32,000 nt of DNA from Cylindrospermopsis raciborskii Cr2010 (GCF_003367075.2 NZ_CP065936.1:1890001-1922000); one strand, 5' to 3'. Positions 10,043-27,440 are shown, numbered from the stretch's first letter. Numbers and translations are program-made. The notes: generated from the sequence alone by a model not told the origin.

Positions 10043-10324
10043 TTGATAATTGTGTATATTTCACGTCGCTCTGCCACTCTTAGAAACATTTCTGTTGCCG
10101 TTGTTAATGGAATTATCACCTTGGTAATTTTATTGATTGCGCCCTTGGGATTAGCAGCAGTTATTATCAATACAATACTGATAACATTTGCTACTTATTT
10201 TGTATCCAATATTGCTGATAGGATAGTATGGTGGTTACAGTCAGAATCGAGGAAAGATATGGAAGCTGGTGGAAACGAATATTCTGCTGTCAAGAAGTCA
10301 AATTTACAACGTTGGTGGCGTTAA
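10043..10324 (+). CDS. Hypothetical small membrane protein (two predicted TM helices), translationally coupled to cas1
   Basis: 93 codons from TTG 10043 (GTG 10052 is an alternative); no ATG start. Hydrophobic core ISVAVVNGIITLVILLIAPLGLAAVIINTILITFATYFVSNIA. Its stop TAA (10322..10324) overlaps the cas1 ATG (10324..10326) as TAATG. Confidence 0.4.
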   Translation: MIIVYISRRSATLRNISVAVVNGIITLVILLIAPLGLAAVIINTILITFATYFVSNIADRIVWWLQSESRKDMEAGGNEYSAVKKSNLQRWWR

Positions 10325-11316
10325 TGCAAACCCTGTATGTTTCTGAGCAAAACTGCTACATTTGCTTGCAAAAAGAGATATTAGTGGTAAAAAGAGGTGA
10401 AGTTACACAAGCACAAGTGCAGTTACCCTTATTAGAACAGATACTAATATTTGGTAGTTCCCAGGTAACCACTCAAGTAGTTCGAGCCTGTTTGTTGCGC
10501 GACATTCCTATTGCCTATTTATCCAGAATGGGTTACTGCTATGGCAGAATTTTACCAATATCGAGAGGATATCGCCAACTGTCTCGTTATCAACAACAAC
10601 TTTCTGCTATGGAAAAATTAGTAACAGCGAGGGAGATTATTAAAAGTAAAATAAAGAACAGTAGAGTATTATTGCAAAGACAGAAGAAAAAAACAGCATC
10701 TGCTAATTTAGAACGTGTTTTAGAAAGCCTTAATTATTTAGCAGAGCAAACTGCATCAGCTGACAGTTGTGAGAGACTAATGGGGATAGAAGGCGCTGGT
10801 GCTGCCCAATATTTTTCAGCTTTTGGGGAATGTCTTAGCAACGAGAATTTTATTTTTTTAGGTCGCAGTCGTCGTCCCCCTGGAAACCAGGTCAACGCCA
10901 TGTTGAGTTTTGGATATCAAGTGCTTTGGAATCATCTATTGGCACTAATAGAAATTCAAGGTTTAGATCCTTACTATGGTTGTTTGCATCAAGGTCATGA
11001 TGGTCATCCAGCATTAGCTTCTGATTTAATTGAAGAGTTTCGCTCCCCATTAATAGACTCATTGGTTATGTGGTTAATCAATCGCAATATTTTTGATGTA
11101 GGAGCTGATTTTGAGTTTATAAAAGGGGGATGTTATTTAAATAATTCAGGAAGAAAAAAGTTTTTACAAGCTTTTTTGCAAAGAATGACAGAGGAAGTAC
11201 AAACGGAGGATGGAACTAAACAACCAAAGTGGGACTTACTCACTCAACAGGTAAGAGCTTTTAAGCAGTTTGTTTACAATCCTGCCCATCACTATCGTCC
11301 ATATAGAATACATTAG
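10324..11316 (+). CDS. cas1: Cas1 integrase
   Basis: MQTLYVSEQNCYICLQKEILVVKRGE... is a typical Cas1 N-terminus. Also NAMLSFGYQVLWNHLLALIEIQGLDPYYGCLHQ and ALASDLIEEFRSPLIDSLV. ATG 10324 is preferred over the upstream in-frame start at 10228 used by the ORF track. Confidence 0.9.
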   Translation: MQTLYVSEQNCYICLQKEILVVKRGEVTQAQVQLPLLEQILIFGSSQVTTQVVRACLLRDIPIAYLSRMGYCYGRILPISRGYRQLSRYQQQLSAMEKLVTAREIIKSKIKNSRVLLQRQKKKTASANLERVLESLNYLAEQTASADSCERLMGIEGAGAAQYFSAFGECLSNENFIFLGRSRRPPGNQVNAMLSFGYQVLWNHLLALIEIQGLDPYYGCLHQGHDGHPALASDLIEEFRSPLIDSLVMWLINRNIFDVGADFEFIKGGCYLNNSGRKKFLQAFLQRMTEEVQTEDGTKQPKWDLLTQQVRAFKQFVYNPAHHYRPYRIH

Positions 11317-12093: not shown

Positions 12094-15000
12094 CCCCGCT
12101 TCCCTCTGGGAAGTGGAATCAATGGAAACATCTCCCAAAACCCCCATGGGTTTGGGTTTGGTTCCCCCCGCTTCCCTCTGGGAAGTGGAATCAATGGAAA
12201 CAGGATCCTCTCCTCGAGAATTCTTTTGCGCTTTTGCACCCCGCTTCCCTCTGGGAAGTGGAATCAATGGAAACATTTGGTCAAAGATGTGAATAAGATT
12301 AGTTCTAAGTCCCCGCTTCCCTCTGGGAAGTGGAATCAATGGAAACTATTTTGAAAATCCAAGAACGAAGCATCAATGGTTTCAGGTCCCCGCTTCCCTC
12401 TGGGAAGTGGAATCAATGGAAACTGTATCCCGTTTCAACTGGTTCTGTTTCCAGACCCACTTGCCCCGCTTCCCTCTGGGAAGTGGAATCAATGGAAACT
12501 GCAACTAATAAAAACATCAGTTTGATTATCTTTTTGCCCCGCTTCCCTCTGGGAAGTGGAATCAATGGAAACCGTAGGTATATTATATTCTTTACCAACG
12601 GAAACTCAGTGGCCCCGCTTCCCTCTGGGAAGTGGAATCAATGGAAACTTTAAACAATCAGGAGAGACCTCCTGGTTATTTGGGCCCCGCTTCCCTCTGG
12701 GAAGTGGAATCAATGGAAACAGTCATAGACATCCTTGAACCAATAAACAGTTACAGCCCCGCTTCCCTCTGGGAAGTGGAATCAATGGAAACCCAGAGCA
12801 GTGGTGGCCTAGCCACACTGCCAATGAGTGGAACCCCGCTTCCCTCTGGGAAGTGGAATCAATGGAAACATTTACTCTGTGAGTTCCATAAGCAATTGCA
12901 TCATCTCCCCGCTTCCCTCTGGGAAGTGGAATCAATGGAAACGAATTTTGAAATCAAGATAAAAGTAGACGGGCTAGCCCCGCTTCCCTCTGGGAAGTGG
13001 AATCAATGGAAACTCCCCTGGTAGTTCCCCTCTAGCGGTTCCCCTCTAGCAGCCCCGCTTCCCTCTGGGAAGTGGAATCAATGGAAACAGATTTGATAGG
13101 GGTGGATTTGGCGATCGCACTAACACCCCGCTTCCCTCTGGGAAGTGGAATCAATGGAAACGATATTTATTACGTCGCTGGAAAATTCCAGTAAATTTTC
13201 CCCGCTTCCCTCTGGGAAGTGGAATCAATGGAAACCACTCCCGCTCAGGATCTTTAAGATCCTGAAAGTCCTAAAACCCCGCTTCCCTCTGGGAAGTGGA
13301 ATCAATGGAAACATAATAAAAATACTAGCTACTCCCTGTAAGCCTGATTATCCCCGCTTCCCTCTGGGAAGTGGAATCAATGGAAACGGGAGTGGTGTTT
13401 AGATGAATGGTTTAATAATTACAACCCCGCTTCCCTCTGGGAAGTGGAATCAATGGAAACGTTTGTTAAGCTTGCTCCTGTTCGGGTGCTTTTGCCACAT
13501 CGCCCCCGCTTCCCTCTGGGAAGTGGAATCAATGGAAACTTGGTACTATAGGACAAAAACGAGACTAGGGTGGCCCCGCTTCCCTCTGGGAAGTGGAATC
13601 AATGGAAACATTTGTTAATAAAGCTACGAATTGGTTAATAGAAACCCCGCTTCCCTCTGGGAAGTGGAATCAATGGAAACTTTTATTGGTATTGAACTGG
13701 ATAAAGATTATGTCGAAATAGCAACCCCGCTTCCCTCTGGGAAGTGGAATCAATGGAAACGAGTTGGGCAGTAAATCACTATCTACATATACGTAGCTCC
13801 CCGCTTCCCTCTGGGAAGTGGAATCAATGGAAACCCGAGGTAATCTACCAAGCTAACCAAAGTGTATAAATCCCCCGCTTCCCTCTGGGAAGTGGAATCA
13901 ATGGAAACAAGTCATGCAAACAAAACCTCCATGTTTTTAAACGCTTCTTCCCCGCTTCCCTCTGGGAAGTGGAATCAATGGAAACGTTCGTGGGAGATGC
14001 ACCAAAGAGACTTTGGATCCAACCCCGCTTCCCTCTGGGAAGTGGAATCAATGGAAACGCTCAGGGAGCTGCTGAGCTATAGGAACAAAGAATATCCCCG
14101 CTTCCCTCTGGGAAGTGGAATCAATGGAAACCGCCGCGGATGCGGACGCTTGTGCGACGATTTCACCGCCCCCGCTTCCCTCTGGGAAGTGGAATCAATG
14201 GAAACCTACTTCTTGGGGTGTCCAGGACTCATATTTATCTTCCCCGCTTCCCTCTGGGAAGTGGAATCAATGGAAACAAAAAATTTAACCTTCATAACCT
14301 AATCTCCTAATCAAAACCCCGCTTCCCTCTGGGAAGTGGAATCAATGGAAACTTGTAGTTGGGACGATCCCAACCCGTCTTTTTGTCATACCCCGCTTCC
14401 CTCTGGGAAGTGGAATCAATGGAAACCTGCCACCCTTCGACTGAAACCCATCCAATTTGGATGCCCCGCTTCCCTCTGGGAAGTGGAATCAATGGAAACC
14501 TCCACCCTTTCGGGAGAGCGCGGGTTAGTTTAGGATACCCCGCTTCCCTCTGGGAAGTGGAATCAATGGAAACCACCAGACTGACTTACTTCCGCTTCAA
14601 AACTTGTGGCCCCGCTTCCCTCTGGGAAGTGGAATCAATGGAAACCAACCGAATATCGTACCCGTACGAACTAAGTCCGTACCCCCGCTTCCCTCTGGGA
14701 AGTGGAATCAATGGAAACCCATTATTTCCCTCAGAATACCATGGTTGAATTTCCCCCGCTTCCCTCTGGGAAGTGGAATCAATGGAAACATATTAGTTTC
14801 AGTTGCTTAAAAAAAGATATTGACACCCCGCTTCCCTCTGGGAAGTGGAATCAATGGAAACTTCTCCAGTTGGTGGCAGGACTGTGCGCGTGGAAAAACC
14901 CCGCTTCCCTCTGGGAAGTGGAATCAATGGAAACTTTAAAGATCCTGAGTGGCATTGAGAATTTTAGTAAGGTCCCCCGCTTCCCTCTGGGAAGTGGAAT

Positions 15001-15753
15001 CAATGGAAACCTACCTGATGAAAAAACTGTTATCATTGGTCTATGGGCCCCGCTTCCCTCTGGGAAGTGGAATCAATGGAAACAGGCATCCTCTGGAAAT
15101 ACCCCCTCATACCGAAAGGTATCCCGCTTCCCTCTGGGAAGTGGAATCAATGGAAACATGCTGTAATAATTTAACTTGCTCATTTAAGTCATAGACCCCC
15201 GCTTCCCTCTGGGAAGTGGAATCAATGGAAACGCATTGGAATTCTGCTACAGATTGTCTAGTAGCGTAGCCCCGCTTCCCTCTGGGAAGTGGAATCAATG
15301 GAAACTTGTGGATAACTTACCAAAGTTCCGCCATCTAAAAGAATTACCCCGCTTCCCTCTGGGAAGTGGAATCAATGGAAACGTGATACGTTTGATATGA
15401 AAATATCAGAAAGTCATATCCCCGCTTCCCTCTGGGAAGTGGAATCAATGGAAACTTGTCACGGTTAAGCGGTGTTAACCCGGGTGAGTTTCAGCCCCGC
15501 TTCCCTCTGGGAAGTGGAATCAATGGAAACTCATCCGCACGGGGATGGTTGTTTAATACTTCTAGCCCCGCTTCCCTCTGGGAAGTGGAATCAATGGAAA
15601 CCTCTAGGGGAACAACTTGTGGTTCTGCTGCAGGAGTTCCACCCCCGCTTCCCTCTGGGAAGTGGAATCAATGGAAACATCTTAAAAATCCTGAGTGGTA
15701 ATGTAAAATTTAGCAAACCCCGCTTCCCTCTGGGAAGTGGAATCAATAGAAAC
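12094..15753 (+). CRISPR. CRISPR array, 50 repeats / 49 spacers, transcribed left to right
   Basis: 36-nt repeat CCCCGCTTCCCTCTGGGAAGTGGAATCAATGGAAAC, located by hand at 50 positions (first 12094..12129, last 15718..15753). Spacers are 34-44 nt. There are only two variants: repeat 42 (15122) starts with T, and the terminal repeat 50 has CAATAGAAAC. Orientation is supported by the leader at the cas2 side, the degenerate repeat at the far end, and the repeat ending in GAAAC. The internal hairpin is CCGCTTCCC/GGGAAGTGG. Confidence 0.97.
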
Positions 15754-15974
15754 GCATTGTCTTTAGGTAATTATTGCCACGAGCAATAAAAAGCATCTTT
15801 CTATTTTTATTGATGCTAGGGAATGGGGAGAAATTTAAAATATGAGAGCGATCGCCTACAATAAGCTATAAGATCGCACCTCCTCAACTCCCCAAACAGC
15901 GATTATTCATTTTTATTAAACTGGTACGTCTGACTCCTTCTGCGCTAAAATATCCTTAGTTCAAGGAATTGGCT

Positions 15975-16175
15975 ATGAAAATAAAAGCAATTATTTGGGA
16001 AGAAGACGGTGTATGGTGTGGTTCTGTACCAGCTTTACCAGGATGTCATACCTGGGGTGAAAGTTACGAACATTTATTAGAAATGTTGAAAGATGCTGTT
16101 CAAGGTTGGTTAGAAGTTGCTAGTCAGCAAGAAGAAGTTGAACCACAAAAACAGTTAATTGAGTTATCTTTATGA
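15975..16175 (+). CDS. hicB: HicB-family antitoxin (UPF0150-like)
   Basis: MKIKAIIWEEDGVWCGSVPALPGCHTWGESYEHLLEMLKDAVQGWLEV matches the HicB N-terminal domain pattern. The stop TGA overlaps the hicA ATG (ATGA at 16172..16175). Confidence 0.7.
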   Translation: MKIKAIIWEEDGVWCGSVPALPGCHTWGESYEHLLEMLKDAVQGWLEVASQQEEVEPQKQLIELSL

Positions 16176-16376
16176 AATCCGTTTCTGGTAAGTCTCTGTG
16201 TAAGAGAACGCTATGGATGGAATCTAAAAAGGATTACAGGTAGTCATCATATCTATGTTAGGGAAGGTATGAGTGTGATTCTTTCTATACCTGTTCATGG
16301 AAATCGTGATCTACCTACGGGTACACTGAAAAGTATTTTGAAAGATGCTGGTTTGATTGAAGAAGATTTAGACTAA
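16172..16376 (+). pseudogene. hicA: HicA-family toxin, disrupted by a frameshift near codons 10-13
   Basis: From ATG 16172 the frame reads MKSVSGKSLCKRTLWMESKKDYR and stops at TAG 16241..16243. The next frame, from about 16206, reads ERYGWNLKRITGSHHIYVREGMSVILSIPVHGNRDLPTGTLKSILKDAGLIEEDLD and stops at 16374..16376, which is a complete HicA body. Neither piece is in the ORF track (<60 aa). Confidence 0.6.
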
Positions 16377-16450
16377 TTTCGCCAACGCACTCCCTCCTTG
16401 TAAAGTCTCTTCTCTTTGCATCTGCTCTTTATAAAACAACTCATTCAAAA

Positions 16451-18586
16451 CTACTGATATAGCTTACTAATCCCATCCGCCATTAACTTAATTTGTTCCC
16501 GAATCTCCAATGGTTGTACAACCTTAACTTTATCTCCAAAACCAATAATCCAACGTCTGAGGTCTATATCCTCAATACTCCAACAGGGTAAAGTCAGTTG
16601 GCAACAATAAGGATACTTAGAATCTTCTGTTAGTGGTAAAACAAATATCGTCTCCCCTTGTGAAATTCTTTTTCCTGATCGCTTTGAGAATTTAATTTTA
16701 TTATGAGGTAATCGTTTAGTTCTTTCACTCAGAAAATTAAAAATGCTTTCTTCACACCATATTTCTACTGTAATTTCTACAGAAGAACGTTGTTTAGTAT
16801 TTAAATACTTTTGCTGTTCGTCAACGCTATTACCTAAAAATAAACTATAGCTAGATTGGTATAATTTTTCTAATTTAGATAAAGCTGCTTTCTGTTCTTT
16901 TTTGTCGCGTTTTGTTGGTAAATACTCATTAATAGAAAAGCGATCTAATCGCTCAAATCTAAATAATTTATCAGCTTTTCCACCTTTGGTTTCGTAGCCT
17001 AAATACCAGCCTATTTTTGAAAATACAATTTGTAAAGGCCAGACTTGGAATAGTTGGTTAGGATAGGGATCATTAAGATGACGTCCTGTATTTGCAAAGC
17101 GGATAAGTTCTAATAATTGACCTGATAAAATAGCTTCGGTAAGTTGATCTAGTTTCTTGTAAGCTGCGTTGTCTGACAATTTTTCCAGATCAATACCGGG
17201 ACTATCAGCGATCGCTCTCACTCGGTAATCATCAGTATAGTCCTCAGAATCGGTTTGAGTAGAATCCTGAGACTCTGATTCACCAGGCTCTTTACAATCT
17301 GCTTTTTTGTTCTTCTGAGGACGCAATATTTGACTTAATTCTAACTTTTTCTCAATCCCTTCATAAATAGATAAAGAAATAGGATCATCTAAATCTTTAG
17401 CATGAGAACGAAGCACTTTATAAACCTGTACCAGTTCATGTTTATTTAAAATTGCATTGCCAACAAAATAAGCACGTTTCATAATATCCTTAGGTAATAT
17501 TTTATAGGGGTGTAAAACTCTTTGAATATCTTTACGTAGTGTGTCTTGACTAAAACCAACAATATATTTTTTCAAGCTTTCAAAAAATATCTCTTGAACT
17601 GTTTTATCCTCGTCTTCCTCATGGCGAAAACAAGGGAAGTGTACCAAACAGCGAATAATTGTTATTAATCGTAAAAAAGCATCACTATCAGAATAGGTAT
17701 GTGCCTCAAATTTATCAATATTTCCTGTATATTCACCAACCAAAATTTCTGATGTTAACCCTTGTTCATTAAGAATTCCATTTTTTTCTAACCATTGCAA
17801 ATCATTAGCTAAAGCTTTGGGTTCAGCATAAATAGAATGATATTTACGCGACATTAATGCAGATATTTCATCTAAAGAATCTGTTATAGGTTGAACATTA
17901 CCAACTAACTCCTTTTGTAAAAGATCAGGATTAATTTCATGAAGTAAACCTAAGCCAGGGAATTTAATAATTAACGAAATCAAATACATCAATCGTTCAA
18001 AATCAATTAAACCAGAATACTGATGTAAAGTTTTCTTCTGGCTACAATTACGACGATTAATAATAGAACGAGGTAAACTTTTAATCTGTTTTGCAACTAG
18101 AGAAAAGTCATATTTGCCATTTACCATTGGCACAACATTTACTTTAGCAAAACCCTCAGCTTCAATAGGTTCAAAGTTTATTAACTGCTTTTCAAAACTC
18201 TCAATGATACTTTTACCAACTTGCCGTTGTCGCTGTTCATTTCTGCGGTAACATTCCTCCAAAAGCGTTTTCAAATACCAACCCATCCAAGTTTCTGCAC
18301 CTACAACTGCAAACTTTTGCAATATATCCATGCGTTGCGATCGCTTAAAATTTGTAGCATCATAAATTACAGAACGACCAGAAGCAACAGCAACTTTAAC
18401 CCTATTCAATACCTCCTGTTCAATTAAATTCCAATCACCTTGTATACTTTCATCACCAAACAACTCCCCCCGAATTGTATCTGTAGAGATTATTACACAA
18501 TTAGGATCATATTCCACCCACTGACGAGCAAAGGTTGACTTTCCGGAACCAGGAAGACCGATAAGACAATGACAAATTGGAGACAT
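16451..18586 (-). CDS. P-loop kinase (polynucleotide-kinase/AAA_33-like) fused to wHTH-like repeats, a WYL domain and a C-terminal extension
   Basis: 711 aa. N-terminal Walker A LIGLPGSGKST, then IYDATN and the Arg-rich lid RRNEQRQRQV. The middle has wHTH-like segments (DFERLMYLISLIIKFPGLG ... DLQWLEKNGIL; FLRLITIIRCLVHFP ... TLRKDIQRVL), followed by an acidic linker. The WYL core is PLQIVFSKIGWYLGYETKGGKADKLFRFERLDRFS. Confidence 0.7.
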   Translation of the reverse strand: MSPICHCLIGLPGSGKSTFARQWVEYDPNCVIISTDTIRGELFGDESIQGDWNLIEQEVLNRVKVAVASGRSVIYDATNFKRSQRMDILQKFAVVGAETWMGWYLKTLLEECYRRNEQRQRQVGKSIIESFEKQLINFEPIEAEGFAKVNVVPMVNGKYDFSLVAKQIKSLPRSIINRRNCSQKKTLHQYSGLIDFERLMYLISLIIKFPGLGLLHEINPDLLQKELVGNVQPITDSLDEISALMSRKYHSIYAEPKALANDLQWLEKNGILNEQGLTSEILVGEYTGNIDKFEAHTYSDSDAFLRLITIIRCLVHFPCFRHEEDEDKTVQEIFFESLKKYIVGFSQDTLRKDIQRVLHPYKILPKDIMKRAYFVGNAILNKHELVQVYKVLRSHAKDLDDPISLSIYEGIEKKLELSQILRPQKNKKADCKEPGESESQDSTQTDSEDYTDDYRVRAIADSPGIDLEKLSDNAAYKKLDQLTEAILSGQLLELIRFANTGRHLNDPYPNQLFQVWPLQIVFSKIGWYLGYETKGGKADKLFRFERLDRFSINEYLPTKRDKKEQKAALSKLEKLYQSSYSLFLGNSVDEQQKYLNTKQRSSVEITVEIWCEESIFNFLSERTKRLPHNKIKFSKRSGKRISQGETIFVLPLTEDSKYPYCCQLTLPCWSIEDIDLRRWIIGFGDKVKVVQPLEIREQIKLMADGISKLYQ

Positions 18587-18743
18587 AAAAGAAATGATTA
18601 AAAATCAATAAATATATATTAGGCTAAATCACTAATTCTTAATAATACTTAACGCGAATCACGAAAAATACCTTGAAGATTCCCAAATTTTCATTACCTA
18701 AAATTACCAATTACAACAAATCTATAACTAATCGTTACAACTT

Positions 18744-19037
18744 TTAATTTTGTTGTTCGCGTCAAATTAACACTGCTTAGGTACTTTGATGTTATAAGGA
18801 ATTCAAACTAGACGCTAACGTTTGTGGGAAAGCTGAAAACCCCTCTCCTGTCTGGATAGCGGATTTAGGTAAATATCAAGTAGTACCAGTGTTTGGTCTT
18901 ACTGACAACAACAACCCAAGACATAAATTTGTACAAACATTGCGTAATGGTACATCCACACAAGAATTTGCTGAAATTTTCCCCCTCCCCTAGCTTTCTG
19001 TTGTTCGCGCCAAGAGGATTTAATTTTGACGGTCGCG
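18744..19037. promoter_or_regulatory. Three copies of a TTAATTTTG-N3-(T/G)TCGCG / TGTTGTTCGCG motif in the divergent kinase-WYL / CARF intergenic region (candidate operators)
   Basis: 18744..18761 is TTAATTTTGTTGTTCGCG. 18999..19013 is TGTTGTTCGCGCCAA, whose 11-mer is identical to 18751..18761. 19020..19037 is TTAATTTTGACGGTCGCG, matching copy 1 at 15/18. Function is not shown. Confidence 0.3.
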
Positions 19038-19154
19038 TGAAGAATTAGACAAGTAGGCTAGGGGTAGCCATAATTATAACTATCAACCCAAGAAAAGATT
19101 GATTGCACAGTACACGATTGCAGAATTTATCAAAGTTATCATAAGGAGTCTATT

Positions 19155-20093
19155 ATGGAAAATCGTTTATTTGTTTTCTCACCCTGTGGCACAAGTTTGT
19201 TGACTAATCAAGCAGCTCAAGAAGAAAGAGCTTTAGTCACTAAATATGCTAATGCAAAACACATTGAAGAAATACCCCCAGAAGATAGCCTGAAACTGCG
19301 ATCGCTTGCCAAGAGAGTAGAAGAAAAACTAGCATCTGCTGATCTTGAGTTAGCAGGTAAGATGTCAGCGGAGCTAAATGGCATTATTAAACTTTATAAT
19401 GGTAAGTTAGAGAAAAAAGCAGACATTCACTATTTGCTTTGTACTGACACCTGGTTAGGGGAACAGACAGCAACCTTAGTAGAACAATGGTTAAGAGAAA
19501 AAGGTTTTATAGTTGATAAAAACCGACAGAAGGATCTGCAAACAAAAGATATTGAGTCCTTTCAAGTTGCCTTATCAGATATAGTAGAGTTTTTTGAAAA
19601 AACCATACCTGGTTATAGAGATTCTCAACATAAGATTATATTTAACTTAACTGGAGGATTCAAGAGTGTGCAGGGATTTTTACAAACCCTAGCCACATTT
19701 TATGCAGATGAGACAATTTATATATTTGAAACAGCCAAAGACCTGTTGTGCATACCAAGATTGCCAGTGAAAATGGTAGTAGAAGACAGCGTACGCGACC
19801 ATCTTCAAGTTTTTCGTAGACTAGCAAATGAAATGAAAACTGCTGACGTTAGTGGTGTACCAGAAACCCTATTAATGCGGATAGGAGATGAAGTTTCTTT
19901 ATCTCCCTGGGGAGATTTAGTGTGGGGAAGAACAAAGAAAGAGATTTATGGGGAGAGATTGCATCCTTCACCCAGTGAAAAGGTAAGTTATGGACCTAAG
20001 TTTGAGAATAGTCTGAGGGGAATATCAGCAGATAGATTAGTATTAATTAACGAAAGAATAGACCAGTTAGCAAAGAATTTAGGCGTTGCATAA
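19155..20093 (+). CDS. CARF-domain protein, Cas_APE2256/TIGR02619 type (CARF7 clade); 3' end truncated by IS1 insertion
   Basis: Family motifs FSPCGTSLLTN, SAELNGIIKLY, LLCTDTWLGEQTA and IIFNLTGGFKSVQGFLQ. The last four codons (GVA plus stop) lie inside the left inverted repeat of the IS, which begins at 20082. Confidence 0.75.
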   Translation: MENRLFVFSPCGTSLLTNQAAQEERALVTKYANAKHIEEIPPEDSLKLRSLAKRVEEKLASADLELAGKMSAELNGIIKLYNGKLEKKADIHYLLCTDTWLGEQTATLVEQWLREKGFIVDKNRQKDLQTKDIESFQVALSDIVEFFEKTIPGYRDSQHKIIFNLTGGFKSVQGFLQTLATFYADETIYIFETAKDLLCIPRLPVKMVVEDSVRDHLQVFRRLANEMKTADVSGVPETLLMRIGDEVSLSPWGDLVWGRTKKEIYGERLHPSPSEKVSYGPKFENSLRGISADRLVLINERIDQLAKNLGVA

Positions 20094-20837
20094 TAGAGGT
20101 ATGAATTGAGGTAATCTACTGTGCATTGTCCAAACTGCGGGTCTTCCAAAATCAGAAAGAATGGCAAACGTCGAGGTAAACAAAATCACATTTGTGTTGA
20201 TTGTGGTCGTCAATTTATCGATGTCTATAGTCCACCTAAAGGCTATTCAGAAGAAGTTAAACAAAGTTGCCTGCGCTCTTATGTTAACGGTATGGGATTT
20301 AGAGCAATTGAACGCGATAAAGGCGTTCATCATACAACTATTATTTACTGGCTAAAACAAATTGGTTCCATACTTCCAGATGCTCCACCAGTTGAGGAAA
20401 CACCCTTGGTAGGTGAGCTTGATGAGTTGGAGACCTTTGTGGGATCAAAAAAAAACAAAATATGGTTGTGGACAGCAGTAAATCACTTCCGTAAAAATAT
20501 CCTGGCTTGGGTTGTGGGAGACCACAGCTCACAAGCATTTCAACCTTTGTGGGACATCGTTAAACTCTGGCAATGCTTTTTTTATGTTACTGATGGGTGG
20601 AGGGTTTATCCGAGTTTTATTCAGCCAGAGGATCATATTGTGAGCAAAACATATATGACTAGGGTAGAGGGTGAAAATACACGTTTACGTCACTACTTAG
20701 CGCGACTACATAGAAAAACGCTATGCTATTCAAAATCTGTAGATATGCTTAGGTATTCAATTAAATTATTACTTCACTATTTAAAGTATGAAGTAATACC
20801 CGCGTTTAGTTGATTCATCCCGCAAATATGCAACGCC
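20082..20837 (+). mobile_element. IS1-family insertion sequence, 756 bp, apparently intact
   Basis: Imperfect terminal inverted repeats: GGCGTTGCATAATAGAGGTATGAAT (20082..) versus the reverse complement of the right end, GGCGTTGCATATTTGCGGGATGAAT (..20837). The first 11 nt are identical. One transposase ORF fills the element. No clean target-site duplication could be identified. Confidence 0.85.
20121..20813 (+). CDS. IS1-family transposase (single fused ORF, N-terminal zinc finger + HTH + DDE)
   Basis: MHCPNCGSSKIRKNGKRRGKQNHICVDCGRQF provides the zinc finger. DDE-region blocks are IWLWTAVNHFRKNILAWVVGDHS, YVTDGWRVY and EGENTRLRHYLARLHRKT. Confidence 0.9.
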   Translation: MHCPNCGSSKIRKNGKRRGKQNHICVDCGRQFIDVYSPPKGYSEEVKQSCLRSYVNGMGFRAIERDKGVHHTTIIYWLKQIGSILPDAPPVEETPLVGELDELETFVGSKKNKIWLWTAVNHFRKNILAWVVGDHSSQAFQPLWDIVKLWQCFFYVTDGWRVYPSFIQPEDHIVSKTYMTRVEGENTRLRHYLARLHRKTLCYSKSVDMLRYSIKLLLHYLKYEVIPAFS

Positions 20838-20849: not shown

Positions 20850-22440
20850 ACTCCGTAGGTGGAACAATGCAGTAGAAAATCATCAACAATTAAATCCCCT
20901 ACTATTGGAGACTATCTATGCTGAAGAACAGCGAGATAGCAAGGTTAAGCTTCTCCGGTCTAAAGACACGGAGATTTCTGAAGAGTCCATAAACGAACTT
21001 TCTGAGGCTGGCTTAAACAGCCTCTACTGATTCCGCTAAGATCAATTCCTAGCATCACCGCTACTTTTTTCAAAATATTAGCAGCACCATTACAGTCCGC
21101 ATTAATTTTGAACCCATCAGAAGTTTGATATACTCCGCGACTAACTCCTTTCCCGCTTGCTTCCCACCCTTCGGGTTTTTCACCGAATTTAGGTATATTG
21201 TCGCAATCAAAAAATGATGATTGAGAAGTGTATGATTCTTCTGTTTCAATAAAATCTATTCCGTATTGTTTACATAATTGAGCAATACGGTCTTTTAATC
21301 TTGCTGTGGGAATTTGCACAAACTTCTGATTGTTTTTAGACCCCAAATCAATACTATCTTTTTGTCCTTTATTCCATCCAAAAACAATAGCACCAATCTT
21401 ATTTTCAATACAGTGGTTAACGACTATTCTTGCAGCTTTGTTAACTGCATCACGCATTTGTCGGTTTCTTTTTTCGGTAATAGCAGCTAATCTGTTAGAC
21501 CAAAAACCTTGCGGTTTATCACTTTTAAGTTTAGCTACTGATTTGTTGTACCACTGATTTAAACTTTTTAAATGAAGTCCATCAACAATAAATGATGTTC
21601 CCAGATTAGAAACACAAGTTAACCAGTTATTTAACCCGTGGTCAATCCCTAAAACATTATTTCTATCAACATCAGATTTTATTTCAGCTACCTGATAGAC
21701 AAATTATGCATAAAATTGTCTATTTCTAGGTAAAATCCGTACTTCTCTGATTGATTTGAAGTCAAGGTTAGATGGCATTGGTAGACAAAAAGAATCTATC
21801 CCAAACCATGCCTTAACTTTTGTTCCCAAAGGAAACCTAATCATCCCATCAATTAACTTTAATGACCTGCCCGTAAAAGTAGCTACAGTCATAACACTTT
21901 TACAGTAATTAGGTAATTTTGGTTTTTGGGAAACTTCGCCCTTTTTTGCAGCTTTTACTAGCCCAATGTACGATTTAAAGGATTCAGCTACACTGGTTAG
22001 TATTTGTTGAGAAGTATCAGAATACAATGCCTGATAACGAACGTTTTTCTGATAAGTTCCTAGTTGTTTATGCAAATCTGCTCTACTAGGAATATAACCC
22101 GTTTTAAAGTACATCTGCCTAGAATAGTAAACGCCACAATTTGTCAGCTTTTTAGCTTCTGTGCAGACGTACTCCAGTATCGCTGTTATTGATTTATCGG
22201 ACTTGATAAGAACTTGTTGGCATCCGTACATTGTTCGACCTTCAATGTTTGTTGATTTCAAAAGTATAGTTGAGATATGATTTACTTGTCAATAGCAGCC
22301 ACGAAACAACATGAAGACAGCACTGGAATATTGAAGATCCGCATCACGGTTAAATATCAAGGCGAATAAATTCGCCGTTGGCACTTCCTGTCTAAAGCCA
22401 AGTGGCTTCCGTGCCGGCGATTTTCTTGTGAGGCTAAGAG
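20850..22440 (-). mobile_element. IS200/IS605-family element carrying only tnpB (IS1341-like); ends approximate
   Basis: A tnpB body, plus subterminal hairpins upstream of tnpB (GGCGAAT-AA-ATTCGCC around 22361..22376; AAGCCA-AG-TGGCTT around 22395..22408). No tnpA. The left boundary abuts the IS1 element. Exact ends are not determinable by eye. Confidence 0.45.
20960..22261 (-). pseudogene. tnpB: tnpB (IS605 OrfB / RuvC-like RNA-guided nuclease family) interrupted by one in-frame TAA
   Basis: Track ORFs 21704..22261 and 20960..21457 are in the same frame (22261-21457=804, a multiple of 3). My read-through of 21457..21704 gives ...ILPRNRQFYA*FVYQVAEIKSDVDRNNVLGIDHGLNNWLTCVS...KRNRQMRDAV.... 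The only stop is the TAA at 21706..21704, where relatives, as I recall them, usually have Glu (GAA). RuvC motifs LGIDHG, IETEESYTSQ and INADCNGAANI are present. The likely start is MYGCQQV (22231). Confidence 0.8.
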
Positions 22441-22613: not shown

Positions 22614-24167
22614 TCAAGTGTATAAGCAAGTGGATTCATAGTTCTCTAATTCCCTAACTATCTCCTCGTGGACTTGATACATAATACTTGCATCTTCCAG
22701 AGAATTAAATTTCTCATCTGTAATGAAGTTTAAACAGCATAGAACTCTTTTCTCCCAATGATCTTTTGTTGTTTTTTTCCAAGCCTTGAAGACTTCTTCT
22801 TCAGATAATCCAAGTATGTTGTGAAATATTTTATTTCTTTCGGTTTTTGTAACTTCGTAAAATTTTTTCATATCGTCATTCTTATTTATTTCTAATTCTT
22901 TGATTATCTTGAATAAATCTTTCCACCGATCAACTTTAAGTGTATTTGATCGATTAAAAAATTTATTGTTAACTTTTTCTTGAAGACTACGTTCCAATTC
23001 ATTGATCATCGTTTCACAAATTGCTTTATTAGCATAATCGTCTTTGTTGGTAATGTGCTGATGATATTTGTCTTCAATCCAGTTAATGATTAATCCTTCC
23101 ACAGATCTGAAACTGTGAAATAGTGCTTCCACACTGTTTCCTTGCTCTATTCTTACCACAGCTAAATAGGCAGCTTCATATGCTGGCCACCAGTAATATT
23201 TCAATCGCTCTTCTGCTGTTTTCTCAAACTTTGGTAGCTTTTTTAATTCCTCAATAAAACCTTCGGCTTTAGAAGTATTTGATTTAACTTTGAATTCAGA
23301 AGTATTCCACTTAATAGCTGCATTTAATAAATTTTTAATGTTATCCATTTTCTCATCCTGGTTATTAGGATCGTCTAATAAATCATCTTTTAACAAATCC
23401 AGGACACCTGAATAATCAAAACGTTTCAGTAAGATTTTTGCCTCTTGCAGTTTAAGTCCCCGCAAATAATTGGAAGTATTTATGATTTTTGTACTTTCAC
23501 TTTTGTATTCATTGGAAACCAAAAATTTCACTTTTTTACCGAATCTTGATAAGCTGAGAAATTGAATTGCAGATGAAATAGCAGGTGTACCAGCTTGATG
23601 ACTTACATATATATTATTCAAATCTTGATCTTTCATTAGTCCGAGTATACTTGAAGAATTAAATAGTTCTTTCATGATCAGCTTGGGCACTTGATCCCAG
23701 CTATCTAAACTTTCTGATTCTGATTTTGGTTGAATTGTGACATAATTAATCTCTGACTGAGGAAATTTACTTTTCAAATATTTCTCGATTATTGGTTTCA
23801 AAGTACAAGTATCTTTCCAGTATGGGCTATCTAAACCAGGATCGCCGTCCTCGCAATTCTCCCTAATAAATCTCTGATCTGTCAAAATAACAATTATTTG
23901 ATTAATATCCTTTTTTTCTTGTTCTAATTTTTGAGAAAAATTATCCAGTAATGGAAAACATAGGTGTTCATGTATGGAATAACCTAATTTTTCGCCAATA
24001 GCCATTCCCATAGCTCTTGCTGGAACTAAAAACATATCTTTTTCTTTATCTTCTTCCCCAAATTCATGAGGAAGTTTTTTGGATAGTTCATTCCATCGAC
24101 ATATTCCAGAAATTTTGAGTTGAACATCACTGTTACCGGTTGTCAAGATCCAAATATTACTACTCAT
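22614..24167 (-). CDS. CARF-like N-terminal domain fused to a HEPN RNase domain (Csx1/Csm6-like cOA effector), appended to cassette B
   Basis: 517 aa. The Rossmann-like N-terminal part has IWILTTGNSDVQL, CFPLLDNF, QIIVILTDQ and NIYVSHQAGTPAISSAIQ. The helical C-terminal part carries an R-x4-H HEPN motif in KTERNKIFHNILG. It lies 108 nt downstream of cmr6/1 B on the same strand. Confidence 0.65.
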   Translation of the reverse strand: MSSNIWILTTGNSDVQLKISGICRWNELSKKLPHEFGEEDKEKDMFLVPARAMGMAIGEKLGYSIHEHLCFPLLDNFSQKLEQEKKDINQIIVILTDQRFIRENCEDGDPGLDSPYWKDTCTLKPIIEKYLKSKFPQSEINYVTIQPKSESESLDSWDQVPKLIMKELFNSSSILGLMKDQDLNNIYVSHQAGTPAISSAIQFLSLSRFGKKVKFLVSNEYKSESTKIINTSNYLRGLKLQEAKILLKRFDYSGVLDLLKDDLLDDPNNQDEKMDNIKNLLNAAIKWNTSEFKVKSNTSKAEGFIEELKKLPKFEKTAEERLKYYWWPAYEAAYLAVVRIEQGNSVEALFHSFRSVEGLIINWIEDKYHQHITNKDDYANKAICETMINELERSLQEKVNNKFFNRSNTLKVDRWKDLFKIIKELEINKNDDMKKFYEVTKTERNKIFHNILGLSEEEVFKAWKKTTKDHWEKRVLCCLNFITDEKFNSLEDASIMYQVHEEIVRELENYESTCLYT

Positions 24168-24275
24168 AAGCTTCAGTCCTCTCCTATTCTGTATTCCAAC
24201 CTGTTGTTTTTTTATCTACTGATTACCAACTGTACGTCAAAAGTAAGTAAAAAATGTCTCCCCTACTATAGCACT

Positions 24276-26078
24276 TTAACTGCCCCAAAGTTTTTCAAAA
24301 GTGTTATCATTTTCTAACAATTTGAAGAATTCTGTTTTCAGATCTGGGTTATCTGGAGCAAATATGGTTAATATTTCTACGTATCTACACTTTGTTTGTT
24401 TACAATCATGTACTATTTTATCGTTCCGTATAGTAGTATATAGAGGATACATTCTGTGCCAAATTTGACTGATTTTTCTCTTTCCAGAATCAACATATCC
24501 GGTTAAATCTGTTCTTTTGATATTATCTCGATGAAACCATTCAATGGCTCTACTATCTTCTCGACCTTCTGCTATTCTTGCCCATACCTGTACATTTTTT
24601 GGGTGCCAAGATTCTCGCCATGTTTCTACATATGGACCTGTGGTTCCGGATTTAATATATTGAGGAAAGTATCCTCTTACTGTATCTGGAAGATCGGATA
24701 AAAATTTCTTTATATTATTCAATTTTCCATCGTTTACTGTAATGCAATATTCTTCCAATTGAAATGATTTTTGAAAAATCCAATGGCAACCAATTAGTAT
24801 ATCTTTCCTATATGCTGGATAAAAGAGTTTATGATCTGATCTGCGCCATGATCTACCAAAACCACCTAGCAGCATGGAGAACTTAATTAGTAAAGCTAGA
24901 AATTGCCGTTCATTTTCTGAACAGCGACCAGCTAAAGTTGAATTAGTATTACTAATTTCTAGTAAACCTTCTAAATCATATCTAATTTCTTGATCAATAT
25001 CATATTTAAAATTCACATCATATTTAAAACTAACACCAAATTTACCAACAGTTGAACCTTTTTTATGAATGTCTGAAGTAATCCCACCCCATAATTCTTC
25101 ACTTATCTTTTGCACTGTGTATTCGTCAGTTAACCCTGCTAATAATCGTAAAGTATGACCTCTTAATGTCGCTTTAAACATATTAGGACGAAATTCCGAA
25201 GAGGCGTTTTGATTTAATAACCTAGAATTTATTCCTTTTCCTTTTAAACCGACCGATATAACAACTTTATTATCAGTCAAAAATACTGTTTCCGAATTTT
25301 GAGAATTTTGAGAATTTTTAAATTTACCGTATCCAGCACTGGTTCTAGAACCAATTCCGTTCGATAAAGCATGTTCCCAAATTCTTTGAACTAACTCCCA
25401 GTCTAAATCATTTGAATGGTTATATTTAATTTCTGAAATACCAAATATAAAAGTTGTGCGGTACAGTGAAATTTGCAAATTAGCTTTAGTTTTTATGTCA
25501 TCATACATAACCTGAAATTTTTGTTGACTGTGAATAATATCAAGCAAGCGATCACTATTTGCCCAGGACATATCTACAGGATAGCCCCCATGAAAACGTA
25601 AAATTCCTGGCTTTGTTGTTTTTCCGCCAACACATTTTTCTTCCCCACCACAATAATCTAATACTTTGTCTGGTTCAATCTCTAAACAAGCTCTCAAAAA
25701 AGCTCCCTTCATACTAGTTCCTGTGTAGTAAGGTACACCTTTTGCACCGATAACAGGTCGAATTATTCCGTCGTCTTGTCCTGAATTTGTAACTAAACGC
25801 CAAATTAGTGTATATTCCCACGTATGGACATTTTGTCCAAACTTAGGTATTCTTATTGTTGATGGCTTCTGTTTCCATTTCGGCAAGACTTCATCTGATT
25901 TATTAGGTATGGGGGGACATCCTTTGAACCACTCCTCTATCCACTGTTTTGCTGCTGATTTATTTCCAGCATATTGAATCATTCCCCTATCTTTAATTTG
26001 AGCTTGATACATTAATGGTACTGAATTATGACTCATTTTTTTGTCCTCACCTATAACTTCTCTCAATTTTTTAGCCAC
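24276..26078 (-). CDS. cmr6: Type III-B double-RAMP subunit, Cmr6-like + Cmr1-like fusion (cassette B)
   Basis: 600 aa paralog of 4137..5801. Motifs: RPVIGAKGVPYYTGTSMKGAFLR, GIGSRTSAGYGKF, FRPNMFKATLRGHTLRLL and LLGGFGRSWRR. The likely true start is MSHNSVPLMYQAQ (ATG 26036). Confidence 0.75.
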   Translation of the reverse strand: MAKKLREVIGEDKKMSHNSVPLMYQAQIKDRGMIQYAGNKSAAKQWIEEWFKGCPPIPNKSDEVLPKWKQKPSTIRIPKFGQNVHTWEYTLIWRLVTNSGQDDGIIRPVIGAKGVPYYTGTSMKGAFLRACLEIEPDKVLDYCGGEEKCVGGKTTKPGILRFHGGYPVDMSWANSDRLLDIIHSQQKFQVMYDDIKTKANLQISLYRTTFIFGISEIKYNHSNDLDWELVQRIWEHALSNGIGSRTSAGYGKFKNSQNSQNSETVFLTDNKVVISVGLKGKGINSRLLNQNASSEFRPNMFKATLRGHTLRLLAGLTDEYTVQKISEELWGGITSDIHKKGSTVGKFGVSFKYDVNFKYDIDQEIRYDLEGLLEISNTNSTLAGRCSENERQFLALLIKFSMLLGGFGRSWRRSDHKLFYPAYRKDILIGCHWIFQKSFQLEEYCITVNDGKLNNIKKFLSDLPDTVRGYFPQYIKSGTTGPYVETWRESWHPKNVQVWARIAEGREDSRAIEWFHRDNIKRTDLTGYVDSGKRKISQIWHRMYPLYTTIRNDKIVHDCKQTKCRYVEILTIFAPDNPDLKTEFFKLLENDNTFEKLWGS

Positions 26079-26120
26079 CTAAACTATCTAAATTACCTTT
26101 GCTGTAATAATTTGGTTCAT

Positions 26121-26513
26121 TCAATTCTCTTGATCAGTTTCGTTACTTGCTGTAGGTTTGTATCTTTGTGTCCACCAAACCATATAATCACATAGTTGTG
26201 TTAGTATTGAAAGTGTAACTTTTCGATACGCTAAAGGAAATTTTTGTGAATCCCATAAATCTTCCGGTGTTCGAGGTACTTGGATACTAGCTTGATGCAT
26301 AGTTATGACCAATTTGTCCCAAGTATCTGCCCAATATTGAGATTTCTTATTATTTTTATCTTCTTTTAATCGCAATTGTTCACCCCAGAACCTTTCTAAA
26401 CCATAGTGAACCGTAGAGCGCATTTTGTAAACTTGCTTTGATGCTTCATCATCTTTATATTTTTTGACTAATTCGTGAGCAATCTTGTCTAGATTAAAAT
26501 CTTCCCAGGACAT
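26121..26513 (-). CDS. cmr5: Small subunit, Cmr5/Cas11-like (cassette B)
   Basis: 130 aa. Same position as, and homologous to, 5785..6213 (KMRSTVHYGLERFWGEQLRL, VWWTQRYK). Confidence 0.55.
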   Translation of the reverse strand: MSWEDFNLDKIAHELVKKYKDDEASKQVYKMRSTVHYGLERFWGEQLRLKEDKNNKKSQYWADTWDKLVITMHQASIQVPRTPEDLWDSQKFPLAYRKVTLSILTQLCDYMVWWTQRYKPTASNETDQEN

Positions 26514-26564
26514 ACTTACCTCGTAATATAACTAACTTTGTAAGATTATTAAATACTAACAGTT

Positions 26565-27440
26565 TTATTGGATAAATACTGTGACTTCACAGTACCCAAA
26601 ACCTACGGACTCCAAACCCCCAAAATAAATATTAGCCTTATTAATTCTAGGCTGATCTTGTTCATACTCTCCAGCAAAAGGTTTCCATGTTTCAGGTTTA
26701 TTTTGACCGTTCTTTTTAATACCAATAGGAAAAACTAAAAAGGTTTCCTCTGGTAATGCTTCAACTCCAAAAAAATTCTTACTACACTTTTGTTCCTTTT
26801 CTAAAGCAACACGACTTTGACGGTAGAGTGCCATATCATGAATCATAGAAATTTCATTGTCACGTACTATTATTGCTGGTAATTTTTCTTGATTCGGAAA
26901 CCAACAGTCATCTATATATTCGTTGTTCTTAATACTCAAAAAACCAAAATTGAAGAATAATTTGTTGTTTGGTAAAGGTACAAGGTTTTTGGATCTAGAA
27001 TATTCACTAGGTAGAGGTTTTTGCAATCCAGTGATTCTCTTGTAACGCTTCAACAAACGTGGACAGCTTACCCAAACAATTGGTTGACCTGGACAGAATA
27101 CAGGTAGCCAAATGATAGAAGCATAGTCAAACTTTACTAATGATTCAGTTATTCTACTGTAAATAGCAGAATCGTCTGTATTATTCTCATCATTACGCTC
27201 ATCTGTGTAAGTGAAATCATTTCCATACCATTTTTTTACCTCTGTTTCTTTTTTGTCTCCCGAGTGATTGTACCGCATTAAAGCTCGGAATCTACCACGA
27301 ATTGAGCTGCCAGGAATAATACCAGTTTGAGTAAATTGATCTCGAAAAATTAGGTTGATATTTCCCGTTTCTTCTCCCGCTGTTGCTCCTACATGTAATG
27401 GTGCTTCTGTTTTAATAATTCCATAACCCTGATGATACAT
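26565..27440 (-). CDS. cmr4: Cmr4 (Cas7-family backbone RAMP), cassette B
   Basis: N-terminus MYHQGYGIIKTEAPLHVGATAGEETGNINLIFRDQFTQTGIIPGSSIRGRFR. C-terminal GGLESVGFGYC. Relative to the cassette A copy it carries an insertion after RYNHSGDKK. Confidence 0.85.
   Translation of the reverse strand: MYHQGYGIIKTEAPLHVGATAGEETGNINLIFRDQFTQTGIIPGSSIRGRFRALMRYNHSGDKKETEVKKWYGNDFTYTDERNDENNTDDSAIYSRITESLVKFDYASIIWLPVFCPGQPIVWVSCPRLLKRYKRITGLQKPLPSEYSRSKNLVPLPNNKLFFNFGFLSIKNNEYIDDCWFPNQEKLPAIIVRDNEISMIHDMALYRQSRVALEKEQKCSKNFFGVEALPEETFLVFPIGIKKNGQNKPETWKPFAGEYEQDQPRINKANIYFGGLESVGFGYCEVTVFIQ

Follow-up and report, generated by a model that had tools for sequence, protein, structure and literature searches.

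The cyanobacterium Cylindrospermopsis raciborskii Cr2010 encodes, within a stretch of 32,000 nucleotides (NZ_CP065936.1:1890001-1922000; referred to here as the window), a 711-amino-acid (aa) protein in which a polynucleotide-kinase-like domain is fused to a WYL domain. We refer to both the gene and its product as KW, for kinase-WYL. We propose, with a probability of roughly one-half, that KW is a locus-specific helix-turn-helix (HTH)-WYL-WCX transcription factor of cyanobacterial type III CRISPR modules and that its N terminus is an active 5'-OH polynucleotide kinase resembling Pnkp. KW probably links control of the type III module to the processing of cut nucleic acid ends. This proposal builds on the identities of the domains, the conservation of the catalytic and ligand sites, the association of the family with type III loci, and a DNA motif whose placement is linked to the gene. 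The gene and its parts are as follows (pLDDT, predicted local distance difference test score).

16451-18586, minus strand: KW gene, an open reading frame (ORF) starting with ATG; 711 aa; more than 120 full-length homologues (640 to 780 aa); mean pLDDT of 80 in the AlphaFold (AF2) model
18092-18586, minus strand: residues 1 to 165, P-loop 5'-OH polynucleotide-kinase-like domain, assigned from AAA_33, the family profile, Foldseek, and conservation; key residues K16/S17 (P-loop), D36 and R39 (acceptor motif ISTDTIR), D76, and R119/R121 (lid)
17741-18037, minus strand: residues 184 to 282, HTH-like module copy 1; helical, pLDDT of ~85 to 95
17471-17713, minus strand: residues 292 to 372, HTH-like module copy 2, with RKDI(E/Q)xxL(K/H)PYKILP as a putative recognition helix
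17192-17329, minus strand: residues 420 to 465, acidic low-confidence linker; pLDDT below 50, gapped in most homologues, and largely an insertion of the subclade to which this KW belongs
16907-17164, minus strand: residues 475 to 560, WYL domain (W527-Y528-L529, R546, D548, R549)
16454-16789, minus strand: residues 600 to 711, WCX domain (Pfam PF25583, family profile)

The AF2 model was built on 41 homologues and shows the kinase at residues 1 to 165, a helical middle at ~185 to 360, a helical linker, the disordered acidic stretch at 420 to 465, a WYL barrel at 475 to 560, and the WCX domain at 600 to 711; a second model covers residues 175 to 711. All conservation figures below come from an alignment of 119 full-length homologues.

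The kinase domain matches Pfam AAA_33 (residues 7 to 136; E value, 8e-23), and its nearest relatives in a search with the single protein were polynucleotide kinases (Pnkp1 [PDB 4xrp], 1.4e-9; the Clostridium thermocellum Pnkp kinase, 3.5e-6). Compared with PDB sequences, the family profile scored C. thermocellum Pnkp at 1e-14, PSTK at 5e-12, Pnkp1 at 7e-11, and T4 Pnk at 1.6e-4; small-molecule kinases scored far more weakly (shikimate kinase, 0.07; adenylate kinase, 0.04). The original prediction had left room for a small-molecule kinase, but these scores (1e-14 versus 0.07) place the N-terminal domain nearer to RNA and DNA 5'-kinases than to kinases of the shikimate or gluconate type. Foldseek comparison of the modeled domain gave template-modeling (TM) scores of 0.77 to 0.79 to the C. 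thermocellum Pnkp kinase (4gp6), with Mucorales RNA 5'-OH kinases (9drz and 9d8a), mammalian PNKP, PSTK, Pnkp1, and T4 Pnk among the other top neighbors. The Mucorales enzymes are experimentally demonstrated RNA/DNA 5'-OH kinases (PMC11571804). NCBIfam returned only sub-threshold kinase matches (PSTK and bacterial Pnkp) and no family name; its Pnkp equivalog TIGR04075 aligns with the kinase part alone (residues 7 to 153) at 40 bits against a cutoff of 750.

At the level of single residues, K21, S22, D38, R41, D78, R120, and R123 of C. thermocellum Pnkp align with K16, S17, D36, R39, D76, R119, and R121 of KW, and the ISTDTIR motif pairs with ISSDFCR, the acceptor D-x-x-R of the clostridial enzyme. 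K16, D36, D76, N79, R85, N116, and R119 are invariant, position 17 is Ser or Thr in 119/119 homologues, and R39 and R121 are kept in 118 and 117 of the 119, respectively. The Walker and lid residues, whose loss in an alignment would have counted against the original prediction, are conserved, as are the acceptor residues. In T4 Pnk and C. thermocellum Pnkp, roles are established for the P-loop Lys and Ser, for the acceptor Asp (general base) and Arg, and for the lid arginines, which contact the NTP phosphates. Because the catalytic residues are conserved and align with those of C. thermocellum Pnkp, the KW kinase is very likely, judging from sequence, to be catalytically active and not a decayed NTP-binding relic.

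The C-terminal part of KW has the organization of a WYL-family regulator. The "associated_signaling" WYL model in the CRISPR set of PADLOC covers residues 468 to 703 (7e-20), the Pfam WYL match is sub-threshold (15.4 bits against a cutoff of 21.8), and the core residues W527, Y528, L529, R546, D548, and R549 are invariant in 119/119 homologues. Pfam WCX (PF25583) matches residues 675 to 703 (E value, 4e-5; 24.3 bits against a curated cutoff of 23.9), and the family profile matches the WCX domain of PafC at 4.5e-4. Foldseek matched the model of residues 175 to 711 to PafBC, DriD (including its C-terminal domain bound to single-stranded DNA [ssDNA]), WYL1 (6oaw), ssDNA-bound CapW, and BrxR. The original calls of an AAA_33/T4-Pnk-like kinase and a WYL domain are thus correct, and the sequence features on which they rested fall where they had been placed: LIGLPGSGKST at residues 8 to 18, IYDATN at 74 to 79, RRNEQRQRQV at 114 to 123, IGWYLGYE at 525 to 532, and LFRFERLDRFS at 541 to 551.

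Between the kinase and the WYL domain lies a tandem duplication of a module of ~90 aa, both copies of which share the invariant pattern H-x-Y-S..F-x-R-L..P..D..L. A kinase-less WYL paralogue (see below) aligns through its first 92 aa both to residues 184 to 275 (copy 1; E value, 2e-7) and to residues 290 to 365. In copy 2, R351 (113/119), D353 (118/119), and Y361 (119/119) are strongly conserved, and the stretch RKDI(E/Q)xxL(K/H)PYKILP is followed by (K/R)-x-(G/A)-Y-F-x-G; in sequence, these two elements resemble the recognition helix and wing of a YafY-type winged HTH (wHTH). The modules occupy the place where HTH-WYL-WCX regulators have their wHTH, and the wHTH label rests on this position, the helix pattern, and the YafY-like signature. 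In Foldseek, the alignments with full-length DriD and a PafBC chain (446 and 409 columns, respectively) reach through the copy 2 region. Of the "wHTH repeats" in the original prediction, the tandem duplication is real, but no HTH profile in Pfam or among PDB sequences matches it. Searched against a large protein collection, the two-module profile found only four short unannotated fragments.

We next consider where the family occurs. With one genome scanned per species, KW loci numbered 279, which places the family in at least 279 species genomes; 80 of these loci were kept for inspection. The more than 120 full-length homologues are 37 to 96% identical, all those with a source name are cyanobacterial, and their source labels read only "WYL domain-containing protein," "AAA family ATPase," or "predicted kinase." The 80 loci are likewise cyanobacterial save for two contigs binned as Acetobacteraceae (L050 and L069), which bear cyanobacterial-type repeats and a long Cas10 and are probably misbinned cyanobiont DNA.

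In 61 of the 80 loci, type III cas genes or a CRISPR array lie within 10 kb of KW, mostly as the immediate neighbor; this is a raw count over the 80 loci. The association with CRISPR and type III loci that the original prediction had called for is thus strong. Type III effector genes are present in 54/80 loci and an array within 10 kb in 53/80; 13 of the 19 loci having neither have a truncated flank. In ~38 loci, KW is divergent from cas10-cmr3-cmr4-cmr5-cmr6-csx1, with 200 to 600 bp or a mini-array between them and, downstream, an array and csx18-cas1-cas2. In ~10 loci, KW comes last, behind csx1 or another CARF-HEPN gene and on its strand. Arrays lie within 700 bp of KW in 40/80 loci (on both sides in 8), and an array starts no more than 700 bp from the KW stop codon in 28/80. 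A CARF-HEPN gene (csx1 or a 585-aa form) co-occurs with KW in ~43/80 loci, and the recurrent neighbors of KW across the 80 loci are cas genes only.

The KW-cas10 intergenic regions have a DNA element in common, TCATGCGAATGACGAAATTT, with the core GCGAAT[G/C]ACGAA. In the window, it occurs between KW and a divergent gene for a CARF-RelE protein (PWM, position weight matrix).

18648-18673, plus strand (antisense to KW): motif site 1, core GCGAATCACGAA at 18654-18665; PWM score of 19.3 bits; 79 bp upstream of the KW ATG
18741-18766, minus strand (KW orientation): motif site 2, core GCGAACAACAAA; PWM score of 19.4 bits; ~165 to 180 bp upstream of the KW ATG
18998-19011, minus strand: weak, tentative third site GGCGCGAACAACAG, spotted by eye; PWM score below 9 bits; ~150 bp upstream of the CARF-RelE ATG
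19155-20093, plus strand: CARF-RelE (Csm6-like) gene, divergent from KW; PADLOC CARF_RelE, 4e-121, covering profile positions 2 to 305 of 359

Sites 1 and 2 are the sole PWM matches of at least 9 bits in the 32 kb, and both fall in the 568-bp KW/CARF-RelE intergenic region (18587-19154). Across the family, a relaxed core pattern finds a site within 400 bp upstream of KW in 55 of 81 loci, against ~2 to 3 expected from its density elsewhere in those loci. The sites fall into three classes. Class 1 comprises 48 antisense-strand sites located between -77 and -139 relative to the KW ATG, with a mode of -87, and includes loci without CRISPR. Class 2 sites are on the sense strand ~250 bp from the cas10 ATG, with the mini-array, if present, between classes 1 and 2. 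Class 3 sites share the orientation of array transcription and are found 185 to 220 bp past the downstream array's leader-proximal repeat. At a threshold of 17 bits or more, the PWM has 151 matches in 1.32 Mb of KW loci versus 0 in shuffled sequence, and there are 0 matches of 14 bits or more in 118 kb from six KW-less type III-B loci of cyanobacteria; of seven further KW loci, six carry 1 to 4 matches. A metagenome scan for an exact 18-mer gave 25 matches, of which 3 are at KW/cmr loci and the rest at chance number, a weak reverse test. The motif is flanked by weakly conserved TTTTCA-like and A/T-rich sequence, and the element may, as a conjecture, overlap the core promoter. A literature search for the motif sequence found no description of it.

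Several further observations concern the element and its surroundings. In many loci (L008, L014 to L017, L019, L023, L030, L032 to L034, L037, L043, L049, and others), a small extra array sits exactly between two motif copies in the cas10/KW divergent region; these mini-arrays are transcribed toward KW, leaving arrays on both of its sides. We rejected the reading of the motif pair as an RNA hairpin: one position differs consistently between the arms, such that G would face G, and many loci have a mini-array between them. One metagenome contig (L085, 1-3380) contains an exact 300-nucleotide direct repeat 2,310 bp apart, giving two copies of the 18-mer; this is probably a circular or wrapped assembly and not two sites.

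The original prediction offered two hypotheses for KW, and the one that fits better is a transcription regulator with a built-in kinase; we favor it because of the divergence from cas10, the conserved putative recognition helix, and the gene-linked DNA motif. In the scheme that we infer, which runs from DNA binding at the motif to the ligand, the kinase substrate, the sign of regulation, and the links between these steps, a KW dimer would bind TCATGCGAATGACGAAATTT through its HTH-like modules in its own upstream region, ~250 bp from cas10, and in CRISPR leaders. This binding would set transcription of KW, the cmr-csx1 operon, and the arrays. The WYL domain would sense single-stranded nucleic acid and so switch the regulator, the likeliest ligands being 5'-OH RNA fragments that Cmr4, Csx1 (HEPN), and RelE-type effectors release after activation of type III immunity. 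The kinase would phosphorylate the 5'-OH of the ligand, and the resulting 5'-phosphate would either end the signal, by handing the fragments to 5'-monophosphate-dependent RNases such as RNase J or RNase E, or create the true ligand. Type III responses yield abundant 5'-OH RNA ends through the Cmr4, HEPN, and RelE nucleases. This, and the precedent of single-stranded nucleic acid as the WYL ligand (DriD and CapW structures with ssDNA; WYL1 with RNA), is why 5'-OH RNA fragments are our candidates for what the WYL domain senses and the kinase phosphorylates. In the window, both motif copies sit only between KW and the divergent CARF-RelE gene, and these two genes are the most likely targets of KW there.

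Several findings weigh against this proposal. Pfam has no match on residues 175 to 365, and the two-module profile returned only noise against the PDB; the inter-domain geometry of the AF2 model is unreliable (predicted TM score, 0.55). The first lid Arg of C. thermocellum Pnkp is Arg in the KW of the window but Trp in 86/119 homologues. Five loci with full flanks (L007, L026, L059, L060, and L079) have no CRISPR context. Where KW is the last gene of a cmr-csx1 operon, it looks like an accessory effector and not a regulator. The WYL ligand precedent in DriD, PafBC, and CapW is ssDNA, not RNA. The motif could instead be part of a promoter, or a site for some other factor that simply accompanies the gene. 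Finally, within the window the PWM finds no motif upstream of either cas10 gene or in the array leader, and control of the cmr operons is therefore not indicated there.

Of the other explanations, the one that fares best, though we regard it as unlikely, was the main hypothesis of the original prediction. In this view the role of KW is chiefly catalytic: it would be a ligand-gated RNA 5'-kinase serving as a type III accessory effector, either healing 5'-OH ends so that the cell can repair and recover from collateral RNase activity or marking cleaved RNA for 5'-phosphate-dependent decay, with the HTH-like modules binding nucleic acid or a partner and not promoters. The invariant catalytic residues and the position of KW at the end of a cas10-cmr-csx1 operon in ~10 loci agree with this. 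So does the kinship of the domain, as its next closest relatives are many stand-alone kinases of ~170 to 180 aa; the 150 closest kinase-domain relatives are either KW-sized or stand-alone, and ten sampled ones of middle length show AAA_33 only (one also WCX). Neighboring genes on two plasmids point the same way. On Picosynechococcus PCC 7002 pAQ6 (L082, 14147-15671), a full KW follows the cmr operon and is itself followed by genes for an S-adenosylmethionine-dependent methyltransferase and AlkB, and on Synechocystis pSYSA (L081, 12001-13672), a stand-alone kinase homologue lies beside CRISPR3, followed by AlkB. These neighbors are a possible link to nucleic acid repair or modification; they occur only on the PCC 7002 and PCC 6803 plasmids and were not seen in the 80 loci, which are mostly from Nostocales. 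There is also precedent for a WYL protein that acts on an effector: type VI-D WYL1 is reported to bind RNA and boost the effector and not to act as a transcription factor (PMC6547453). Against a purely enzymatic role, RNA ligase, 3'-phosphatase, 2',3'-phosphoesterase, RtcA/RtcB, and Hen1 are absent from the recurrent neighbors in the 80 loci, the putative recognition helix is among the best-conserved segments, and an enzyme alone would not readily account for a DNA motif that is linked to the gene and keeps a fixed distance from it. The narrower form of the idea, in which KW is a repair or reset arm like RtcAB or T4 Pnk, is unsupported, since neither a ligase nor a 3'-phosphatase partner recurs beside KW.

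A quite improbable reading is that the kinase fold is a regulatory module that binds or hydrolyzes NTP, phosphorylates no polynucleotide, and adjusts the transcription factor to cellular energy or nucleotide status. NadR is an example of an HTH-enzyme "trigger" regulator, sensor-plus-regulator fusions are common, the P-loop of KW is intact, and its substrate is not known. A pure NTP sensor would, however, have no use for the acceptor-side D36 (the general base) and R39, which are as conserved as the P-loop, and the closest relatives of the domain are catalytically active RNA and DNA kinases.

It is also very doubtful that the kinase acts, instead of on long RNA, on a small nucleotide-derived molecule of type III signaling or on another small metabolite; examples of the former would be linear A2>P and A4>P, which ring nucleases produce and whose 5'-OH would be the acceptor. 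Cyclic oligoadenylate signaling is to be expected in the window, where both Cas10 proteins are short (538 and 551 aa), keep GGDD, and are missing the HD domain and where CARF effectors are encoded; AAA_33, moreover, includes kinases of many specificities. Csx3', in which Csx3 is fused to a kinase/transferase domain, is common beside cyanobacterial type III-B loci (PMC7371418), and KW, which comes from these taxa and from loci of this kind, likewise combines a sensor with a P-loop-type enzyme domain. The sensor is WYL in KW and the ring nuclease Csx3 in Csx3', however, and we detected no homology of KW, or relationship of its enzyme domain, to that fusion. We dropped a link to Csx3-kinase fusions or other sensor-kinase architectures: among the 150 nearest relatives of the kinase domain, we sampled ten mid-length proteins and found Csx3 or CARF in none, and no second kinase paralogue is present among the KW neighbors. 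The best matches of the domain, as noted above, are polynucleotide kinases and PSTK.

There is similarly little to recommend the view that the CRISPR link is a by-product of shared defense or plasmid islands and that KW is a general stress or DNA damage regulator like DriD or PafBC, with an unrelated regulon. Copies do occur outside CRISPR contexts, at Calothrix chromosomal loci and in Microcystis and Geminocystis plasmid islands with toxin-antitoxin, reverse transcriptase, and restriction genes. The gene also appears mobile. Positions 16446-18713, which span KW and 127 bp upstream including motif site 1, are 94% identical to a contig of Cuspidothrix issatschenkoi CHARLIE-1 (L001, 9873-12141), and the homology ends sharply on both sides, with unrelated flanks. 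The Cuspidothrix copy lies opposite a type III module that has a long Cas10 and whose repeat differs, whereas Cas10 is short in the window; the KW of the window belongs to the same subclade. Given this identity between unrelated flanks and differing modules, KW resembles a cassette that has passed from one kind of type III module to another. The by-product view is hard to square with the 61/80 association, mostly as the immediate neighbor, and with the recurrence of the motif upstream of cas10 and in array leaders. The family is often present in several copies per genome, and in those assemblies with two KW loci that were checked (e.g., Cuspidothrix, L001 and L018), each copy lies beside its own type III module. 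We also rejected an RNA repair cassette, as no ligase or phosphatase recurs and AlkB/methyltransferase genes occur on two plasmids only.

The transcription factor that we propose has kinase-less relatives. These paralogues (~395 to 402 aa) consist of one HTH-like module, WYL, and WCX and are ~25% identical to residues 290 to 703 of KW; those examined (L083, 9010-10218; L114, 10004-11191; L115, 9992-11182) are always divergent from csx18-cas1-cas2 at long-Cas10 type III-B loci, and the KW motif is missing from these three loci. In Nostoc PCC 7524, a low-molecular-weight phosphatase gene follows the kinase-less paralogue. TIGR03985, the model of a CRISPR-associated protein family, matches a pSYSA protein encoded near CRISPR3 at 344 bits and gives no match to residues 175 to 711 of KW or to the kinase-less paralogue.

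KW resembles several known regulators. It shares with DriD of Caulobacter, PafBC of actinobacteria, CapW of CBASS, and BrxR of BREX the order of HTH-like region, helical linker, WYL, and WCX (Foldseek probability of 1.0 to all four) and the typical position divergent from the defense operon that they control. It differs from them in its second HTH-like module, in an HTH that escapes sequence profiles, and in its N-terminal kinase; none of these four structural matches has an enzyme domain. Sll7009, the type I-D repressor of Synechocystis, and the Cas13d accessory WYL1 (6oaw) are likewise WYL proteins inside CRISPR-cas loci, but only KW has a kinase. A 2014 survey of WYL fusions lists Cas3, exoRNase, Mrr, HNH, SF1 helicase, AbiGII, BRCT, and TerB and no kinase (PMC4012209).

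On the enzyme side, KW shares its fold, P-loop, Asp/Arg acceptor motif, and lid arginines with T4 Pnk and with bacterial Pnkp (Pnkp-Hen1, 4gp6/4gp7; Capnocytophaga Pnkp1, 4xrp). In contrast to bacterial Pnkp, it has no phosphatase or ligase domain and no Hen1 partner, and its kinase is fused to a predicted DNA-binding regulator. In eukaryotes, the 5'-OH product of the HEPN RNase Las1 is phosphorylated by the P-loop kinase Grc3, which enables a 5'-phosphate-dependent exonuclease. KW is likewise a kinase that co-occurs with a CARF-HEPN gene, but Grc3 belongs to another kinase clade (Clp1/Grc3), KW adds regulator domains, and a KW-HEPN complex is neither known nor predicted. The Mucorales kinases (MciKIN; RazKIN, 9d8a; LcoKIN, 9drz) are stand-alone, single-domain enzymes of the same clade as KW. 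They are eukaryotic tRNA-splicing enzymes that prefer GTP, and an essential Asp is reported for MciKIN (PMC11571804). RtcR-RtcAB embodies a similar idea, a nucleotide- or RNA-sensing domain coupled to RNA end chemistry in defense or stress (PMC4012209). RtcR, unlike KW, is a sigma-54 activator without catalytic RNA end activity, and RtcA and RtcB are separate proteins that are not found at KW loci.

The original prediction recognized no named family for the kinase-WYL fusion, and none is present in NCBIfam or in the literature that we searched; searches for kinase-WYL fusions and for AAA_33 with CRISPR found no description. The accessory gene list of Shah et al. contains a cyanobacterial "HTH-WYL" cluster (Nos7107_4284) that may or may not be the KW family. 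The parts of KW are therefore known, while the fusion, its tight linkage to type III systems, and the DNA element are not described in the curated libraries or the literature searched; KW constitutes a conserved cyanobacterial family that is unnamed in curated collections.

The remaining features of the window are as follows.

4137-9718, minus strand: type III-B module a
10228-11316, plus strand: cas1
12094-15753, plus strand: CRISPR array of 50 repeats; leader toward cas1, degenerate last repeat facing the 3' end of KW (convergent)
20121-20813: IS1 transposase ORF, directly after the CARF-RelE gene
20960-21457 and 21704-22261: two TnpB/Cas12f-like fragments, past the IS1 ORF
22614-30197, minus strand: csx1 (CARF-HEPN) and type III-B module b (cmr6, cmr5, cmr4, cmr3, and a short cas10), upstream of KW on the same strand; module b proper, 24276-30197

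KW is flanked, as originally placed, by the CRISPR array and the CARF-RelE gene, and the layout from csx1 and module b to KW fits the codirectional type known from ~10 loci. The 3' end of the CARF-RelE gene appears to be truncated by the IS1 element; the insertion debris (IS1 and TnpB remnants) that separates csx1 from KW probably removed the RelE end of the effector. Csx1 of the window has RNKIFH as its R-x4-H motif. Modules a and b are paralogous (mutual identity, ~40 to 55%), and their Cmr6 proteins are long (554 and 600 aa). Neither cas6 nor a separate cmr1 is present among the annotated ORFs of the window, which in this respect resembles the Cas6-less III-Bv system of Synechocystis, and an Rfam scan of the window gave no match. 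Between the array trailer and the KW stop codon (15969-16376) lie an ORF for a HicB-like antitoxin (68 aa; Pfam HicB_lk_antitox, 1e-8) and a 35-aa ORF that, judged by look, resembles a HicA toxin fragment. The array spacers at 14936-14970 and 15682-15716 are 80% identical across 35 nucleotides, which suggests repeated acquisition from related targets. Ordinary housekeeping genes border the CRISPR region: one flank has a phosphonate-type ATP-binding cassette transporter (binding protein, ATPase, and permease) and the opposite flank a short-chain dehydrogenase (1369-4004 and 30451-31146).

How the expression of type III modules is controlled, and how cells cope with or read the RNA ends left by collateral RNases, is poorly understood. 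Our findings suggest that, in these systems, the region upstream of cas10 and the CRISPR leader have a regulatory element in common, and a kinase can be added to the enzyme domains known from fusions with WYL sensors. The family is abundant in cyanobacteria, including on pAQ6 of the model strain Picosynechococcus PCC 7002, and the protein, the DNA motif, and point mutants (K16A, D36A, and R546A/R549A) give a handle on whether RNA end chemistry is wired into CRISPR regulation. We tentatively suggest, as a possibility of rather low probability, that KW is a trigger enzyme that closes a type III feedback loop, in which the WYL domain would gauge the load of 5'-OH RNA fragments left by Cmr, Csx1, and RelE-type nucleases, the kinase would clear or mature the signal by turning these ends into 5'-phosphates, and the HTH modules would set transcription of cmr, the arrays, and KW via a dedicated operator. 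If this is true, there would be no earlier example of a transcription factor with a polynucleotide kinase as one of its parts, nor of an enzyme that modifies RNA ends and serves as a dedicated type III CRISPR accessory.

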